In this document: positions 12,754 through 61,034 of the stretch, in pieces | Numbering within the stretch: position 1 is the stretch's first letter | Layout of the letters: every line of letters starts with the position of its first letter | Assembly: GCA_009692615.1 (NCBI GenBank) | Contig: SHYW01000004.1 | Location: 8,273-72,272 of the forward strand | Reading direction: 5' to 3' | DNA: 64,000 bases | From: Deltaproteobacteria bacterium | Lineage (GTDB): Bacteria > Desulfobacterota > Binatia > UBA9968 | Position numbers and translations under genes: made by a program | Notes under the pieces: generated by a model | What the model saw: the letters and a program-made list of their open reading frames with translations, nothing else | Told to the model about the DNA's origin: nothing | Databases searched by the model: none

Positions 12754-14325
12754 CTAACCTTTCAATTCAAACTTCCCATCCTTATCCTGACCGATTTTCT
12801 CTTCTTCATACAACCGCGCCAGCGCACTCGCGACGGTCTTGTAATCCGCCTTGGGAAACTTATCCAAGAGATCGGCGAAGAAACAGTGCGACTTGCCGAG
12901 AGCCGCGACGATCTTCTCAACCAGTAATTCCACTGTTTCTGCTGACGTTGCATTGGCTTTTGCCTTTACCGTGACATCGGAAACGCCGACGTAATCGCTC
13001 AACTTAACCTTGCCCTGATTGAAATAAATGATCCGCTGGTACCGCTCGGCCGGAATATTTTCCGGGATCGTCGCGTCGATGCCCATCTTCGCTGTCGTCG
13101 GAACTTTGCCGTACAATGGCAGCGGCAAAGATGGATCGAGCGGCTTAGAGCGCGCGTTGGAGACGATGACGACATCGCGGTCGGCTTGCACGCGGGTCGC
13201 GACGGCCCACTCCACGTCGATGGGATCAAACACGTCGATATCGTCGTCGACGATGGTCACGTGTTTGATATCGGCGATGGACAAGAGCGCCATGATCGCG
13301 TTCTTGCCGTCGCCGGGAACTTTTTTGATCGACGCAATGATATGCCAGTGGCAACAGCCGCCGGGCGTGACGTTGATCCCAACCGTCTGCACGCCCGCTT
13401 CAGCCAATACGCGGCGCGCCGCGGCTTCGTAGATCGGCGCCGACATCCAGATATTTTCCCAAGGCATCTGCAGCGCGTAGTACATAGCGTCCTTGCGGTG
13501 CATGATCGACTTGATGCGCACTCTTGGATTCATGTGCATGCCGCCCATCAGGCGATTGAATTCGCTGAACGGCCCTTCGCTGTGCACCCAGCCTTCGGGG
13601 AGAATTTCTCCCTCTAAAACAATTTCGGCGTCGGCGATGCACGGCACCGGCACGGTTTCGCCGTCGGCGAGACGCAGCGGTTCGTTACGCAAGCCACCGG
13701 CGAAGGTCAGTTCGTTGACGCCGAGGTTGGCTTTGAATGTCGACGCGACCAATTCATACGGATGAGTGCCGATGGAGATGGAGATCGGCAGCGGTTTCTT
13801 TTTTGCCAAGGCGCGTTCGGCGAACTTGCGCATGTTGTTGGGCGTGACGATGTCGATGCCGGTGATGTTGCGCTCCTTGAGCATCAAGCGGTAGATGCCG
13901 GCGTTGATGCCGAAATCCGGGTCCTCGGCGATCACCACGCCGGCGGTGATCATCGGCCCGCCATCCATGATCGAAAACACCGGCACCGGCAGGTCGTAGA
14001 GATTTACTTTCTTGCCGGTATGAATGACTTCCTTCACCGGCGCGTTGGCGACGCGCTTCGGTTGGATCGGTTTGTCCATCGCTTTGCCGAGCTTGGCGCC
14101 GATGTTTTCATAGTCGACGCCCATGCCGAGCGCGATGCGCTTGCGCGATTGCAGCAGACCGGAAACCACCGGCATCGAATAGCCGGGCAAATTCCTAAAC
14201 AGCAGCGCCTTCTCCGACTGCGCCACCAATGCCGCCACGTCGCGCAGATCAACAGGTTTGGAAATCTCCAACAGCTCGTCGTTTTTTCTTAGCGTGTCGA
14301 TGTAATCGCGAAAGCTCGCTTTCAT
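12754..14325 (-). CDS. UbiD-family (prenylated-FMN-dependent) decarboxylase with a C-terminal extension
   Basis: 523 aa with UbiD-wide similarity (GGPMITAGVVIAEDP..GIYRLM, EGPFSEFNRLMGG, VTIVDDDIDVFDPIDVEWAVATR). It carries about 75 extra C-terminal residues, ending ..LARLYEEEKIGQDKDGKFELKG. Confidence 0.85.
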   Translation of the reverse strand: MKASFRDYIDTLRKNDELLEISKPVDLRDVAALVAQSEKALLFRNLPGYSMPVVSGLLQSRKRIALGMGVDYENIGAKLGKAMDKPIQPKRVANAPVKEVIHTGKKVNLYDLPVPVFSIMDGGPMITAGVVIAEDPDFGINAGIYRLMLKERNITGIDIVTPNNMRKFAERALAKKKPLPISISIGTHPYELVASTFKANLGVNELTFAGGLRNEPLRLADGETVPVPCIADAEIVLEGEILPEGWVHSEGPFSEFNRLMGGMHMNPRVRIKSIMHRKDAMYYALQMPWENIWMSAPIYEAAARRVLAEAGVQTVGINVTPGGCCHWHIIASIKKVPGDGKNAIMALLSIADIKHVTIVDDDIDVFDPIDVEWAVATRVQADRDVVIVSNARSKPLDPSLPLPLYGKVPTTAKMGIDATIPENIPAERYQRIIYFNQGKVKLSDYVGVSDVTVKAKANATSAETVELLVEKIVAALGKSHCFFADLLDKFPKADYKTVASALARLYEEEKIGQDKDGKFELKG

Positions 14326-15523: not shown

Positions 15524-15600
15524 GTGTAGGGGCGACCGGCGGTCGCCCTTGCCCTTACCCTCACCCCTGCCCTCTCCCATCGGAATGGGCGAGGGTGAAG
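15524..15600. repeat. Composite REP: gtgtaggggcgaccggcggtcgccc followed by ccctcacccctgccctctcccatcggaatgggcgagggtgaag
   Basis: Both halves are palindromic. The second motif recurs at 48711-48740 and 60951-60980. It contains the ATG (15585) that I use as the start of the next gene. Confidence 0.8.
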
Positions 15601-22743: not shown

Positions 22744-22930
22744 CGCATCCTCCGACTCAATCAACTCGGCATTTCGCGATCGGGGTATGAACCCCGCTCG
22801 CGACCAAAGGGGATGCTCGCCCCCTTTGGAAACCCCATTTAGTTGTGCCCGCCGCAAGCAGCGGGCAATATTAGATTTAAACAAAAAACTACCGACGCGC
22901 TCTGGCTAAGTCAAGCCGTCGGCTGAAAAG

Positions 22931-27721: not shown

Positions 27722-28834
27722 CTAACCCACTCTCAACAAACTATCCGTCGGCGTCACATCGGACAACAACTCGCAGCCCTTATCCGTCACGCAAAACATA
27801 TCCTTGTTCTGCATACCGAAGCGGCCGGGAATATAAACCAACGGCTCGAAGGCGCCGACCATGCCCGCTTCGACGATTTCATCGCCATATCGTCCCATGT
27901 ACGGCTCTTCATGCAAATGCAAGCCGATGCCGTGGGCGACGAAGCTGATCGGCTCAAATCCGAGCTCGCTGAACTTTGCCAAAAATTTACGGTAAACCTC
28001 CGGACAACAGGCGCCCGGCTTGATCAAATCCATGACTAAATATTTACACTCGATCAGGTTCGACCAAATCTTATACTGCTCCTCTGTCGCGTCGCCGACT
28101 ACCGCCGTACGGCACACGCCGGTCAAATAGCCGCTCTTCTGGCCGAAGATTTCCATGCGAATGATGTCGCCGTGCTTTAGCTTACGATCCGTCGGCCCGA
28201 CGTTGGGAAACTGGCTGCGCTCACCCGAGGCGATGATCATGAGTTTATAGCTCTCCGCGCCACCGCCAAACAAAGAAGTCAGCAAGGTCCCGGCCAGCTC
28301 CATCTCGCTCATGCCGACTTTCGCCGAGCGTAGCGCCGTACCCAACGCGTGATCGGTAAGTTTGCTCAGCGAGCGAAGCAGAGCCAGCTCCCCCGCCGTC
28401 TTGATCTGCCGCGCCTTATTGAAAATCCCATCGGCCGCTGACCAGTTGGTATGCGGCAAGCGTTTTTGCAGCGTCGTAAAATCCTTCGCCGGCAGAAACT
28501 CCAACTCGATGGCAACCTTGCCGCGATCTAATTTTAGATCAACCAACGCATCGGCCAGCTTATCCATCGGATCGTCGGAGAACTCCCGATAGATGCGCAA
28601 ATCGTCGATGCCGGCATGAGCCTTGACCGTGGTCGCCTCCATATCGATAGCAACCATAGAAATTTTTCCGTCCGCTGTCACAATACAAGCCGCATGGCGC
28701 CAGCGCATGAGCGACTGCGACGGCACCACGAAACCGGAAACGTAGGTTACGTTTTCTGGCGAAATCGCGACGATGGCGTCTAAACCTCCGGCGACGATTC
28801 GTTTCCTTAAGCGCGCGACAATTTCTTGATCCAT
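27722..28834 (-). CDS. M24-family metallopeptidase (Xaa-Pro peptidase/creatinase-like)
   Basis: 370 aa with a creatinase-like N-domain and a pita-bread domain (GDIIRMEIFG, HGIGLHLHEEPYM, GMVGAFEP). Confidence 0.8.
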   Translation of the reverse strand: MDQEIVARLRKRIVAGGLDAIVAISPENVTYVSGFVVPSQSLMRWRHAACIVTADGKISMVAIDMEATTVKAHAGIDDLRIYREFSDDPMDKLADALVDLKLDRGKVAIELEFLPAKDFTTLQKRLPHTNWSAADGIFNKARQIKTAGELALLRSLSKLTDHALGTALRSAKVGMSEMELAGTLLTSLFGGGAESYKLMIIASGERSQFPNVGPTDRKLKHGDIIRMEIFGQKSGYLTGVCRTAVVGDATEEQYKIWSNLIECKYLVMDLIKPGACCPEVYRKFLAKFSELGFEPISFVAHGIGLHLHEEPYMGRYGDEIVEAGMVGAFEPLVYIPGRFGMQNKDMFCVTDKGCELLSDVTPTDSLLRVG

Positions 28835-28910
28835 ATTGAATGGAAGCGAGAATATCGGCTGCTGCTCGGGGGGTCAAGCGAAACCGACTTGATAGCAATT
28901 GGAGCTTCGA

Positions 28911-29417
28911 TTAATGCGACTGCTCGCCCGCGGTATTTTTCTTCAAACTAAACTCTATCGGCTGCGTGCCACGATCATCCTGCACACGCATGTGAACTTG
29001 GCTATCTGCCAACTTACCCCAGGGATAGGTTTTATGTTCGCGATTAACATTTTCCGCGACTTCGACGTAGCGGATAAAAAGAGAAACAGCTGCGCCATTT
29101 ATCCGCCCTTCCTCCATGCCGTGCTTCAGGCCTAAATAACTCGCCGTGCCGAGGAGTGTTTCCCCTTCGGGTTGAAACATAAACCGCTCGGCATGTTTGC
29201 CGCGACCAGGATAATTCACCTCGCCTTGCCAAGATCCCGTGAGTTTCTGAGTCATCTGTGCGCTTACGACTACCGATTTGGCTAGACTGTCATTCTTTAC
29301 TTCCTGCCGCGACTGCCACCATGCGGCGAACGTCACCAACGCGATGATCAACGGCGCTTTCCAGATCAACCGCCGCATCAGTTTTTTGCGTAATTCTATT
29401 TGCTCGTTGCTAAGCAT
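28911..29417 (-). CDS. Membrane-anchored hypothetical protein
   Basis: 168 aa with a single N-terminal TM (LIWKAPLIIALVTFAAWW). I recognise no family motif. Confidence 0.5.
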   Translation of the reverse strand: MLSNEQIELRKKLMRRLIWKAPLIIALVTFAAWWQSRQEVKNDSLAKSVVVSAQMTQKLTGSWQGEVNYPGRGKHAERFMFQPEGETLLGTASYLGLKHGMEEGRINGAAVSLFIRYVEVAENVNREHKTYPWGKLADSQVHMRVQDDRGTQPIEFSLKKNTAGEQSH

Positions 29418-29433
29418 GATGGGTCAACAATGT

Positions 29434-30050
29434 TCACGCCCAATACGTCGTCCGGTCAACGGGAATATGCTGCAACACTTCGCCCGGCACGAAATCTTCC
29501 AAGCGAATGCGCGTCAGCGCTTCGTCGGGACATTTTGACACCGGCGATAACGGTCGATCTAATGGCTTCGTCGCATCGACGATCATCGCCGAAGTTTTGC
29601 GCGGGTCGACCATCGATGGATCGATCAAGCTACCGCGCATGATTTGCTTGATGATCGACACTTGCAGATGCGGTTGGACGCGAGTCGCCAGAGCCCAAAG
29701 AATTTCCGTCGGATTGTAAACGTCGATGTCTTCGTCGAAGACAAAAACACTCTTGCACCAATCCCAGGTCAGCACCGCGGCCGCGGCCCGGCCTGGATCG
29801 CCTTCGGAAAGTTTTTTCATCGAGATGAAAACGTTCAACAGCGCGTGGCGGCCGCTGGTGCAGACGGTTTCGACATTGGGCACAGCCTCCCGGGCGCGGC
29901 GCAAGTAGGCGCCTTCGGGCGCCAGGTCCATCCACGGTTTGTCACCTTCCGGTGTGAGTATCGAAGTGTGCTGCGCGTCGCACGCAGCCGCTTGGCGCAA
30001 ATGGATAGCGAAGGTCGCGGCGATGGGACACCGGACAAAGCGCTTGCACT
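29434..30050 (-). pseudogene. 5'-truncated UbiD-family decarboxylase remnant (C-terminal ~200 aa only)
   Basis: Within track ORF 29434-30198. FVFDEDIDVYNPTEILWALATRVQP and IDPSM align to VTIVDDDIDVFDPIDVEWAVATRVQA / LDPSL of the intact UbiD at 12754-14325. The N-terminal two-thirds is missing. Confidence 0.7.
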
Positions 30051-30089
30051 TCAACGGGACCTTGCCGACCAAAGTGACGTAAGAGGCCG

Positions 30090-30357
30090 ACAGCCACTGG
30101 CTAATCGTCTTTATGCAGGCACCGGAGTCGAAAAGAATCCTGCCGAAGCGGTTCGTTGGTATCGCGCCGCGGCTGAACAAGGAAATGCAAACGCGCACTT
30201 GACTGTAGGTCTAAGATTGGTCGACGGTATCGGCGCACCGAAAGACGAGAAGCAGGGAGTTGGCTGGTATCGCCGTGCAGCGGAACAGGAACATCCGCAA
30301 GCTCGATTCAGTATGGCGTGGCCCCTCGGAGCTGGGCAAGGCGCACTTAAAGTATAG
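30090..30357 (+). pseudogene. 5'-truncated Sel1-like repeat (SLR/TPR-like) protein remnant
   Basis: This is the last ~90 aa of track ORF 29644-30357: LYAGTGVEKNPAEAVRWYRAAAEQGNANAH..DGIGAPKDEKQGVGWYRRAAEQEHPQA. The upstream part of that ORF is only the antisense shadow of the UbiD remnant. Confidence 0.6.
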
Positions 30358-30492
30358 ACTTATACAAATAACCTAGAAGTCGAGATCTTTCGACTAAAGC
30401 CTGAGGATGACATCAACTACAGTCCCTACTGAGCGATGAGAAATTTTCCGCTATTCAATTCTCGCCAAGATTCGGTATCATTACCAGTCAAG

Positions 30493-31164
30493 ATGATCAG
30501 CACAGTTATTTTCGATCTCGATGGGCTCCTTGCCGACACCGAACCGCTCCATTGCCGAGCTTACCAGTTGGCGATGGTTGAGCACGGCGTCACGGTTAGC
30601 GACGATGACTACGCCGACCATTGGGTCAAGCATGGCTACGGTATCGTCGACTGGGTCAACTGGCACAAACTCGAACTCGATCCCCACGCTCTGCGTCAAC
30701 GCAAGTCGGAGCATTATCTAAAGCTGCTCGAAACCTCATTGCAGCCCATGGACGGCGCGCTTGAATTACTCGCCGGCTTAACCGGCAAAATCCGCATCGC
30801 CCTCGCTTCCTCATCCTATCGCGACGCCATCGACGGCGTCCTCGCCGGTCTGAAGATCGCGCACTACTTCGAGGCCGTCGTCAGCGGCCAAGATGTCGCC
30901 AAGGTCAAACCGGCGCCGGATATTTTTTTACAAACGGCCGAGCGCTTGGCCGTCACGCCGTCAGAATGCGTGGTGCTCGAAGACGCCGAGAAAGGCGTCG
31001 TCGCCGCGCGGCTCGCCGGCATGGCTTGCGTCGCGGTGCCAAATCCATGGACGCGCCACCACGACTTTTCCCAAGCTACACGAGTTTGCGGCTCCCTGAG
31101 AGAAATCGATTTGACTTTCTTGCGCGGCTTAGCGCCAGCGATAAACGAGAGACATTTGCCATGA
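30493..31164 (+). CDS. HAD-superfamily hydrolase (beta-phosphoglucomutase-like subfamily IA)
   Basis: ATG at 30493 (MISTVIFDLDGLLADTEPLH). Downstream are ALASSS and KVKPAPDIF..VVLEDAEKGVVAA. Confidence 0.8.
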   Translation: MISTVIFDLDGLLADTEPLHCRAYQLAMVEHGVTVSDDDYADHWVKHGYGIVDWVNWHKLELDPHALRQRKSEHYLKLLETSLQPMDGALELLAGLTGKIRIALASSSYRDAIDGVLAGLKIAHYFEAVVSGQDVAKVKPAPDIFLQTAERLAVTPSECVVLEDAEKGVVAARLAGMACVAVPNPWTRHHDFSQATRVCGSLREIDLTFLRGLAPAINERHLP

Positions 31165-31856
31165 CCGCATGGCTCGATCGGTATTACGGCTTCATTCTAG
31201 TCTTGGCGGTGCCCGCGCCATTGTGGTTCAGCGTCGCCCAAAACCCCGCGGACCTGCGTCTCGCCGCGCTCCACGATGCACTCATCTGGTGCGCTATTTT
31301 ACTGATCGGTTGGTTGATCGTCAGAAAACTACCGCGCTACCAAGTCCGCGGCGCATGGCGCCAACCGACGACGCAGGAATCCCGCCGTTATCTAAGATGG
31401 CTACTCGCCGTCTTGGTGATCGACTTCAGCTCCAAAGCGCTATTTTTCCGCTGGGACAACGCGCAGCGAATCGAGATCTTCAAAGACTTCGGCATCTACT
31501 CGATGTTTCACGTCACGCCGTTTGAATCCTTTCACGTCTACCTACTGCTCTATTTCGCTTATCTGTTTTTACTCGGACCCTGGTATTTTCGTTTCACCAA
31601 ACCGGTCCATGACCGCATCTGGGTGGCATCCAGCGCCACCGCCATGGGCGGCGTCATCGCCCTCACCGGCGAGCGCTGGCTCTTCGGCGGCGTCCACGAC
31701 TCGTTTTATTTCGCCGGACGATCCTTACTTTATGTCTGGACGCCGGCGGATTTTTTCGTTCATGCCAGGGTCTTACCGTTCATCGTTTTGCTCGCCTCAT
31801 ACGCCGGCCGGCACAGCGCTGAAACCAACCGTCTCTTGCAGGACCCTGCGCCGTGA
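31161..31856 (+). CDS. Integral membrane protein, unknown function
   Basis: ATG at 31161, with an ATGA overlap onto the HAD stop, within track ORF 30966-31856. 231 aa with about 6 TM segments. Confidence 0.55.
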   Translation: MTAWLDRYYGFILVLAVPAPLWFSVAQNPADLRLAALHDALIWCAILLIGWLIVRKLPRYQVRGAWRQPTTQESRRYLRWLLAVLVIDFSSKALFFRWDNAQRIEIFKDFGIYSMFHVTPFESFHVYLLLYFAYLFLLGPWYFRFTKPVHDRIWVASSATAMGGVIALTGERWLFGGVHDSFYFAGRSLLYVWTPADFFVHARVLPFIVLLASYAGRHSAETNRLLQDPAP

Positions 31857-31902
31857 CGTAACTTGGCAAGTGAAAATTCATTAGTCCAAGGAGCATTTCA
31901 TC

Positions 31903-32904
31903 ATGGCCTCAGCTGAATTGATCGTCGATGTGCACCACCACTACATGCCGGCGCAATTGTTCGATCGCCTGGCCGCCCAAGCCGGCGGTAAACGCATCGT
32001 CACCAAAGAAATTAGTCTAACCCTGCACCCGTCGCGCAAAGATCTCGACGCTCATATCAAAGCGATGGACGAAGCGGGCGTCACGGTCTCGATCCTCACG
32101 GACCAGGTCCAAGTCATGGGCGCGGATGTGGCTCGGGCGCTCAACGACGGTGTCGCCGAGGTGGAGAAGAAACATCCAAGCCGTTTTCGCAGCGCCATCC
32201 ACATGGCGATCCACGAGCCGGAAAGCGCCAAGCGCGAGCTCGAACGGGGTATCCACGAGCTCGGCTTGCGCTCCGTCGCCCTGCTCGCCTGCCACCTCGA
32301 CGTCCAGCTCGACAACCCGATCATGTTCCCGCTTTACGAGATCATTCAAAAAAACAATTTGCCGATCATCATCCATCCGCAGTCGAAACCCACGGGTTCG
32401 GAAACCACCTACAGTCTCGACCGCTGCGTGTTTCGCCCGCTGGAAACCACTCAAGCGATCGTGCGCATCATGAACGCCGTGCTGCCGCGCTTCCCCGAGC
32501 TGCGTTTCATCATTCCCCATCTCGGCGGCGCCGCGTCGTCGCTCAAAGGGCGCATGATGGCGTTTTTCGAAACCGACGACGCGCCGATTCCGGCGGAGAT
32601 GCGCGGCTATTTGAAAACTCAAAACGAACAGATAAAATTCGGCGTCACCGAACGGTTTGAAAATCTATTTCAACGGCTCTACTTCGACACCGCCGGCACC
32701 GGCGCCTGGGCGCCGTCCATGGCCGCGGCATTGAATATCACGACAGCCGACCGCATCATGTTCGGCAGCGACTATCCGTTGGAATGTAAAAGCGCCGCGA
32801 ACATCATCGAGTCCATCGACATGGTGCGCCAAGCGCCCTGCTCCACAGCCAACAAGTCGAACATCCTCGGCAACACCGCGGCGGGAGTTTTCAACTTACA
32901 ATAA
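31903..32904 (+). CDS. Amidohydrolase_2 family protein (ACMSD-like metal-dependent hydrolase/decarboxylase)
   Basis: 333 aa. It has the IVDVHHHYMP N-terminal metal motif, LPIIIHP, and FGSDYP near the C-terminus. Confidence 0.75.
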   Translation: MASAELIVDVHHHYMPAQLFDRLAAQAGGKRIVTKEISLTLHPSRKDLDAHIKAMDEAGVTVSILTDQVQVMGADVARALNDGVAEVEKKHPSRFRSAIHMAIHEPESAKRELERGIHELGLRSVALLACHLDVQLDNPIMFPLYEIIQKNNLPIIIHPQSKPTGSETTYSLDRCVFRPLETTQAIVRIMNAVLPRFPELRFIIPHLGGAASSLKGRMMAFFETDDAPIPAEMRGYLKTQNEQIKFGVTERFENLFQRLYFDTAGTGAWAPSMAAALNITTADRIMFGSDYPLECKSAANIIESIDMVRQAPCSTANKSNILGNTAAGVFNLQ

Positions 32905-48536: not shown

Positions 48537-48642
48537 AATTTTATCCTTTCAATTTCGATCTGCCGAATCGGCGAAGCGATTCTATGGGAGAGTAACCGAT
48601 TGCGCAAGCGCAAGCCGCGTCATGTCGCATTTTGAACCTTCG

Positions 48643-48740
48643 AATTCCCTCGCCCTCTGGGAGAGGGCTAGGGTGAGGGCGTACGAAAAATTCAAACCCT
48701 CACCCCCCGCCCTCTCCCATCGGAATGGGCGAGGGAGCCG
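48643..48740. repeat. Paired REP hairpins (ccctcgccctctgggagagggctagggtgaggg ... ccctcaccccccgccctctcccatcggaatgggcgagggag)
   Basis: The motif ccctctcccatcggaatgggcgaggg is shared with 15571-15598 and 60951-60978. Confidence 0.8.
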
Positions 48741-60944: not shown

Positions 60945-60950
60945 AGATTG

Positions 60951-61034
60951 CCCTCTCCCATCGGAATGGGCGAGGGAGTCGGAATCGATTTTGTTCCCTC
61001 GACCGCAACGCGGGAGAGGGTTAGGGTGAGGGCA
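60951..61034. repeat. Paired REP hairpins (ccctctcccatcggaatgggcgagggag ... ccctcgaccgcaacgcgggagagggttagggtgaggg)
   Basis: The motif set is the same as at 15553-15600 and 48643-48740. Confidence 0.8.

Follow-up and report, generated by a model that had tools for sequence, protein, structure and literature searches.

A probable rearrangement scar joins truncated UbiD-family and Sel1-repeat genes head-to-head in a Binatia-type bacterial genome

Analysis of a 64-kb stretch of DNA (hereafter the window) has identified a site at which the remnant of a UbiD/HmfF-like decarboxylase gene on the minus strand (29434-29981) lies head-to-head with an internal fragment of a Sel1-repeat gene on the plus strand (30004-30357), with about 22 nt between them. 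We consider it very probable that this site is the scar of a chromosomal rearrangement involving at least two illegitimate recombination or deletion events, that both gene fragments are pseudogene remnants, and that the long open reading frames (ORFs) running across the site are artefacts. An earlier note on this DNA had described two decapitated genes in head-to-head arrangement, and Pfam searches bear this out by placing UbiD_C on the minus strand and Sel1 on the plus strand. The boundaries given in that note, on the other hand, need to be shifted 70-90 bp to the left. It had let UbiD homology fade near 30050 with some 200 aa surviving, and had started the Sel1 repeats near 30090 after a gap of about 40 bp; tblastn and DNA alignment instead end the UbiD homology near 29980 with 180 codons remaining, profile alignment starts the Sel1 homology near 30004, and the gap is reduced to 29982-30003.

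The surviving part of the UbiD-family gene comprises approximately codons 302-481 of a 481-aa gene together with its stop codon (29434-29436), with the reading frame intact. A protein search returned 117 homologues, the nearest of which are 85-93% identical and the long ones of which contain a UbiD core in addition to UbiD_C. When full-length homologues were aligned to the whole window by tblastn, they matched at 83-90% identity from 29976 down to 29437 and nowhere upstream, while at the DNA level identity to orthologous loci is 78-87% and every match ends at 29971-29981. Multiple alignment places the breakpoint at 29977-29985. Some tblastn matches appeared to carry UbiD homology to 30054-30132, but without composition adjustment these shrink to 29976, and a weak extension as far as 30045 was obtained without that adjustment against one homologue only (P0031). 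We have rejected homology beyond approximately 29980 because DNA alignment puts the breakpoint at 29977-29985. P0031 (433 aa) is itself unusual in that it is otherwise collinear with the family but is missing an internal segment of about 55 residues that includes the EGPFGE loop; it may represent a variant without catalytic activity or else an error of assembly.

Domain analysis indicates what has been removed. An intact orthologue in a related locus (L039) contains UbiD_N at residues 19-87, the prFMN-binding UbiD core at 110-308 and UbiD_C at 324-436, whereas only UbiD_C (PF20696) is found in the remnant, which retains this domain whole plus the last few residues of the prFMN-binding domain. 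Of the 438 positions of the NCBIfam UbiD family model TIGR00148, only 282-438 are matched, and the score of 68.5 bits falls far short of the required 244.85. Also absent is the EGPFGE motif, found at about residues 270-275 in homologues and thus upstream of the breakpoint at codon 302; we take this motif to be the active-site loop, and catalysis presumably resides in this loop and in the middle domain with its cofactor- or metal-binding residues. The remnant cannot be a decarboxylase because residues 1-301 have been lost, and with them UbiD_N, the EGPFGE loop and the prFMN-binding domain except for its last few residues. At 83-92% amino-acid identity over 180 residues and in conserved synteny, the remnant is related to its homologues at the level of an orthologue. 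It shares its C-terminal domain and downstream neighbourhood with a clade of proteins of about 481 aa from Binatia and "Deltaproteobacteria" metagenome-assembled genomes (MAGs) that are annotated as "2,5-furandicarboxylate decarboxylase 1" (HmfF-like) or "UbiD family decarboxylase", and differs from them in lacking these N-terminal and central parts. The window additionally encodes a complete, three-domain UbiD-family paralogue of 523 aa (12754-14325, minus strand) that is 31-34% identical to the family of the truncated gene, and the organism is thus predicted to retain at least one other UbiD-type enzyme.

The ancestral arrangement to the left of the junction can be read from relatives. A scan of species-representative genomes, using the N-terminal 301 residues of a homologue (P0073) joined to the window's UbiD remnant as query, found 148 relatives. 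The best 80 of these, most of which are "Candidatus Binatia" or "Deltaproteobacteria" MAGs, all have the 481-aa length, with 76 covering query residues 1-481 and four cut by contig ends. Collinearity with the window extends over more than 10 kb leftwards from approximately 29977 in four loci (L039, L043, L047 and L056), at 77-86% nucleotide identity, and in each the intact UbiD gene is followed, as is the remnant in the window, by a homologue of a 168-aa ORF and by genes for an M24 peptidase, an MR_MLE enolase-superfamily protein, an octopine-type dehydrogenase and a luciferase-like protein. Comparison with full-length homologues, which the earlier note had proposed as a check, has consequently defined the breakpoints and shown that the gene is truncated relative to orthologues in the same downstream synteny. 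To the other side of UbiD the correspondence ends. In relatives, the 10 kb upstream of UbiD contains genes for Amidohydro_2, GST, M20 peptidase and other proteins; neither DNA nor protein comparison found any of it in the 64-kb window apart from one repeat match of about 130 nt. This segment (22750-22890) matches two places in L039 (2468-2650 and 7630-7755) at about 90% identity at the translated level, and could represent a small coding module that recurs, or a repeat element. Likewise, a tblastn search of all 64 kb detected nothing of this orthologue's N-terminal part, and the paralogue at 12754-14325 gave the sole other UbiD match. The inversion partner that the earlier note suggested looking for, with the missing 5' half of UbiD, was therefore not found within the window.

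The UbiD remnant has hardly decayed. Its 180 codons contain no frameshifts or stop codons. An alignment of 62 homologues has 93 columns conserved at 95% or more, and the remnant departs from consensus in only two of them, with P in place of R and L in place of F. The dN/dS ratio between the remnant and relatives is 0.05-0.07, and that between the intact orthologues compared is 0.02-0.075. Six amino-acid changes, including R20P, N76S and F143L, are unique to the remnant as opposed to 0-5 in five intact orthologues, and 8 of its 16 unique nucleotide changes fall at codon positions 1-2 as opposed to 19 of 59 in the pooled orthologues, an excess that is mild and not significant and gives no more than a weak hint of relaxed constraint. 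Because the remnant is barely decayed, the loss was probably recent.

Short UbiD_C entries do exist in databases (214-aa, 189-aa and 165-aa), and the earlier note had allowed that the truncated proteins could be naturally short standalone domains. For UbiD this does not hold, as the contigs examined are edge, fragment-ORF or nonsense cases. The P0049 call lies at a contig edge. P0003 and P0086 come from contigs in which UbiD and several neighbours are split into adjacent fragment ORFs. Splitting of this kind affects UbiD, hydantoinase A and B and MR_MLE on L001 (ERZ25039478 contig_12232), and UbiD and a periplasmic binding-protein gene on L002 (ERZ25039571 contig_7545). This pattern on long ENA contigs suggests indel errors as in long-read assemblies, and such splitting inflates the count of "short" UbiD_C proteins in protein databases. 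P0052 is preceded by a single in-frame TAG in contig L119 (GCA_035463915.1, a Pseudolabrys sp. MAG). This TAG (2797-2799, ...VEY*VRAINYR...) interrupts the UbiD orthologue at the boundary between core and C-terminal domain, about nine codons upstream of the position of the window's breakpoint, and yields adjacent ORFs of 291 aa and 189 aa.

A further truncation is indicated immediately downstream of the UbiD remnant. In relatives, UbiD is followed by a gene whose product, about 325 aa long, combines a TIR_2 domain with a transmembrane segment and a C-terminal domain. In the window its place is taken by the 168-aa ORF (28911-29417, minus strand), which begins 16 nt past the UbiD stop codon and is 38% identical to residues ~161-313 of the 325-aa protein. 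Some 600 nt, among them the TIR domain, have been lost from the stretch that separates the UbiD stop codon from the 168-aa ORF, and this ORF is a second 5' truncation at the UbiD locus. With the neighbouring gene devoid of its TIR domain and some 600 nt gone, the locus as a whole appears to be in general decay. What remains of this gene is a transmembrane segment and an unknown domain, corresponding to the TIR-less C-terminal half of the ~325-aa protein (L039 11577-12554). The TIR gene is a fast-evolving one, with 57-75% identity among relatives and 38-43% to the window versus 85-95% for neighbouring genes, and loci L041 and L058 likewise seem to have only its C-terminal part. The interval between UbiD and the TIR gene also varies in content: L001 (10748-14542), L056, L060 and L041 contain hydantoinase/oxoprolinase A and B genes there (about 4.5 kb), while no such genes are present there in the window, L038, L039 or L043.

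On the opposite side of the junction, the Sel1 fragment comprises two full repeats and one partial repeat, with a TAG at 30355-30357 closing the frame. Pfam Sel1 (PF08238) is matched in two stretches at 55-56 bits against a cut-off of 30.7 (E ~6e-15), so that tandem repeats are present, and a direct repeat of 108 nt occurs at 30151 and 30259. We built a family profile of 197 positions from 61 homologues of about 200 aa. Positions 27-140 align to 30004-30345 with 99 bits and an E value of 1e-32, the latter computed for one sequence only, the translated window. Family positions 1-26 and the final 57 are absent, and the fragment ends in the middle of a repeat. The earlier note had the Sel1 gene devoid of N-terminus, start codon and signal peptide; the loss of profile positions 1-26 agrees with this, but the gene, which it called 5'-truncated, has lost its 3' end as well. 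The fragment is not a complete gene, as no hydrophobic N-terminus can be discerned by eye in the translation and the C-terminal third is gone. The best homologues are only 45-52% identical and typically measure 190-215 aa; their N-terminus is hydrophobic, three or four repeats are present, and the C-terminal region is conserved. With these small secreted Sel1-like repeat (SLR) proteins the fragment shares two and a half repeats carrying the AEAVRWYRxAAEQG signature; unlike them it has neither signal peptide nor C-terminal helix region, its GC content at third codon positions (GC3) is atypical, and relatives have nothing equivalent in the syntenic position. Its repeats carry other residues at consensus Gly and Tyr positions. 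The GC3 of the fragment is 0.46 versus 0.57-0.76 in six neighbouring genes and the UbiD remnant (0.69-0.76 for all but the 168-aa ORF), and the fragment is probably foreign in origin. We considered whether Sel1 could be an ancestral neighbour of either flanking block and discarded this idea, as a Sel1 gene is absent from all 113 related loci (33 HAD loci and the best 80 of the 148 UbiD relatives).

An AT-richer spacer (30358-30492) separates the Sel1 fragment from a HAD-family hydrolase gene (30493-31164, plus strand), which is the first gene of a conserved block that continues with genes for a 231-aa membrane protein and Amidohydro_2 and two PTP-NADK genes. A metagenome scan recovered 33 loci with the HAD protein, in which the order HAD, 231-aa membrane protein, Amidohydro_2 and PTP-NADK is conserved. 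DNA similarity between the window and these relatives starts only at about 30487. In eight of 11 loci inspected, the gene upstream of HAD encodes a secreted protein of about 170-190 aa that is CpxP/LTXXQ-like in appearance, and neither Sel1 nor UbiD was ever found at this position in loci with upstream sequence available. The CpxP/LTXXQ-like gene and its RidA-like neighbour are both absent from the window. The Sel1 piece is an orphan because the HAD block elsewhere always has another upstream gene, and a second breakpoint at the left edge of this block lies within 30346-30492. With the Sel1 fragment thus orphaned between two independently conserved blocks, there must be at least two breakpoints, one at 29982-30003 and the other at 30346-30492.

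The filler between the two gene fragments (29982-30003), as delimited by alignment, profile boundary and direct reading of the sequence, has no homology to either the UbiD or the Sel1 parent. It contains an ATG at 30001 in the Sel1 frame with no obvious Shine-Dalgarno sequence. Two long ORFs extend across this junction. On the minus strand a 254-aa ORF (29434-30198) starts with 74 residues that are antisense to the Sel1 fragment and the filler and continues with 180 UbiD residues, while on the plus strand a 237-aa ORF (29644-30357) starts with 111 residues antisense to UbiD and continues with the Sel1 fragment. Accordingly, a Pfam search with the former matches UbiD_C alone (E 2.7e-18), and one with the latter matches Sel1 alone (E 8.8e-15, two stretches). 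Both ORFs are artefacts in which true codons are joined to the antisense of the opposite remnant, just as the earlier note had described them. In its 5' part the minus-strand ORF has an apparent GC3 of 0.77 that simply mirrors the first codon positions (GC1) of Sel1, and gene callers favour this hybrid because its high apparent GC3 complements those positions. The 254-aa UbiD_C protein annotated as a gene in a public ENA assembly is consequently a mis-annotation.

That assembly also bears on the question of whether the junction is physically real, since the earlier note had left room for an assembly chimera next to a recombination, inversion or deletion scar. The window is of a metagenome-type source, and its left and right flanks differ in their closest relatives, as would be expected if contigs from two organisms had been joined. 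However, the Logan contig L118, built solely from run SRR8561390 and present in two samples, spans the junction and is identical to window positions 29803-32390 at 2587 of 2588 bases, with one mismatch. Two further contigs (L003 and L004), from the two runs, match 28453-29626 exactly. Runs SRR8561390 and SRR8561391 (PRJNA521725) are metagenomes of water taken from Lake Baikal at depths of 1250 m and 1350 m, respectively. Two contigs of ENA analysis ERZ1305449, 16.2 kb and 8.4 kb long, each carry the identical 254-aa hybrid ORF, 168-aa ORF and 223-aa HAD protein, and their ends differ from each other and from those of the window. Codon composition is alike on both flanks, and a repeat-induced mis-join would not leave a 340-bp orphan gene fragment between the blocks. 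The junction is therefore present in the organism and an assembly chimera is very unlikely, to the point that we give it almost no weight; of what the earlier note had offered, the scar stands, on the basis of full-length orthologues in synteny and a truncated Sel1 gene.

Sequence elements near the junction offer little in the way of an alternative origin. There is no Rfam match, tRNA gene, plasmid match or set of meaningful flanking repeats at the junction, and we have accordingly discarded an origin from a mobile element or island; nor was any promoter-like site found there. Inversion through short inverted repeats was considered for one pair (28959-28973 and 29976-29990) that abuts the breakpoint, but the pair was taken as a chance occurrence because the segment between its arms retains the ancestral order and orientation. 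Elsewhere in the window, a 27-nt imperfect palindrome, CCCTCGCCCATTCCGATGGGAGAGGGC, is present in three exact copies, all on the minus strand (15569-15595, 48709-48735 and 60950-60976), when none is expected by chance. It is found also in a related MAG (L001, approximately 1434-1485), and degenerate versions occur at window 48638-48680 and L001 16932-16974. No copy is near the junction, and the palindrome looks like a REP-like intergenic hairpin element.

Taken in sequence, these events may have unfolded as follows in a Binatia-like bacterium of deep Lake Baikal. The ancestor would have possessed a full 481-aa UbiD/HmfF-like gene followed by genes for a TIR-domain protein, an M24 peptidase, an MR_MLE enolase-superfamily protein, an octopine-type dehydrogenase and a luciferase-like oxidoreductase. 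This lineage would then have lost UbiD codons 1-301 along with the promoter and all that lay further upstream. The UbiD stump would have become joined to a 340-bp piece from the interior of a small Sel1-repeat gene of the secreted type, with about 22 nt of filler in between. The Sel1 fragment would in turn have come to adjoin the unrelated, conserved HAD/membrane/amidohydrolase block, which implies at least two non-homologous recombination or deletion events. In this account the truncations, the breakpoints, the synteny and the physical existence of the junction are shown by the data, and the kind and number of events, the loss of function and the recent date are inferred. Because neither fragment can make its parent protein, both are best regarded as pseudogene remnants. 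The locus resembles bacterial pseudogene remnants at deletion or illegitimate-recombination junctions in its start-less truncated genes, lost intervening DNA and short filler, as well as in its lack of long repeats or a mobile-element signature and in the truncation of a neighbouring gene. Unlike a typical gene decay scar, the UbiD remnant has not yet acquired frameshifts or stops and looks young.

Several features run counter to a reading as a scar between dead remnants: the UbiD remnant is almost undecayed, the breakpoint lies near a domain boundary, UbiD_C is complete, and in-frame ATGs are present at 29931 (UbiD) and 30001 (Sel1), so that some expression or function may persist. One alternative holds that UbiD was split by a large insertion of more than 34 kb, an inversion or a translocation, so that its 5' 900 bp survives elsewhere in the genome and was not deleted. 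The right-hand block is indeed unrelated to the UbiD upstream region of every relative, the low GC3 of the Sel1 fragment is foreign-like, and the sequence inspected goes no further than 34 kb on the right and 29 kb on the left. Yet this 64-kb window contains neither the N-terminal UbiD sequence of this orthologue nor the upstream genes of relatives, the junction lacks an integrase-type signature such as a tRNA gene or flanking repeats, and the genes on the right are ordinary metabolic ones that are conserved as a block in many soil contigs. We therefore consider a split gene unlikely. A living Sel1 gene has less in its favour still. It would encode a short cytoplasmic protein of 118 aa with ATG 30001 as start codon and share a transcript with the HAD operon, a proposal that draws on an in-frame ATG located exactly at the start of Sel1 homology, two repeats above the Pfam threshold, the same orientation as the HAD gene 135 nt downstream, and the existence of short Sel1 ORFs of 74-125 aa in databases. 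This ATG nevertheless has no Shine-Dalgarno sequence, a GC3 of 0.46 is unlike that of every neighbouring gene, the signal peptide and the 57 conserved C-terminal profile positions are missing with the frame ending inside a repeat, and consensus Gly and Tyr positions are replaced. There is also no orthologue before the HAD gene in at least 25 related loci and the gene caller chose the opposite strand, which leaves a functional Sel1 protein highly improbable.

A living UbiD_C gene meets with comparable difficulty. Here the remnant would be a stand-alone oligomerisation domain under selection that, for example, associates with the paralogue encoded at 12754-14325, with translation starting at ATG 29931 (165 aa) or at GTG 30198 to give the 254-aa hybrid. 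The intact frame, the low dN/dS, the completeness of Pfam UbiD_C and an AGGTGA located 10 nt upstream of ATG 29931 are all compatible with such a gene, and gene callers do call the ORF. However, the low pairwise dN/dS mostly reflects shared history before truncation, while R20P, N76S and F143L affect otherwise invariant residues. Cys, Arg and Phe abound in the 74-residue N-terminal extension, which is Sel1 antisense sequence, no promoter-like site was found, short UbiD_C entries examined elsewhere are contig-edge calls, frameshifted contigs or a nonsense mutant, and the proposed partner is only 31-34% identical. We thus regard a selected UbiD_C gene as highly unlikely. Slimmer again is the prospect that the stump is expressed, either from ATG 29931 or as the 254-aa hybrid with an N-terminus formed de novo from Sel1 antisense sequence, and acts as a stand-alone oligomerisation domain that, for example, modulates the 12754-14325 paralogue. 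If true, a live stump would represent a caught-in-the-act case of domain release combined with de novo N-terminal extension by rearrangement.

The rearrangement scar that we favour over these possibilities is an ordinary genomic (pseudogene) scar that implies no new biology. As such it provides a clean and apparently recent example of multi-event decay in the genome of an uncultured, deep-lake Binatia-type bacterium. Recognising it is of use chiefly for annotation and metabolic inference: this HmfF-like decarboxylase should be left out of the organism's predicted repertoire, while the distant UbiD-family paralogue at 12754-14325 has been kept.
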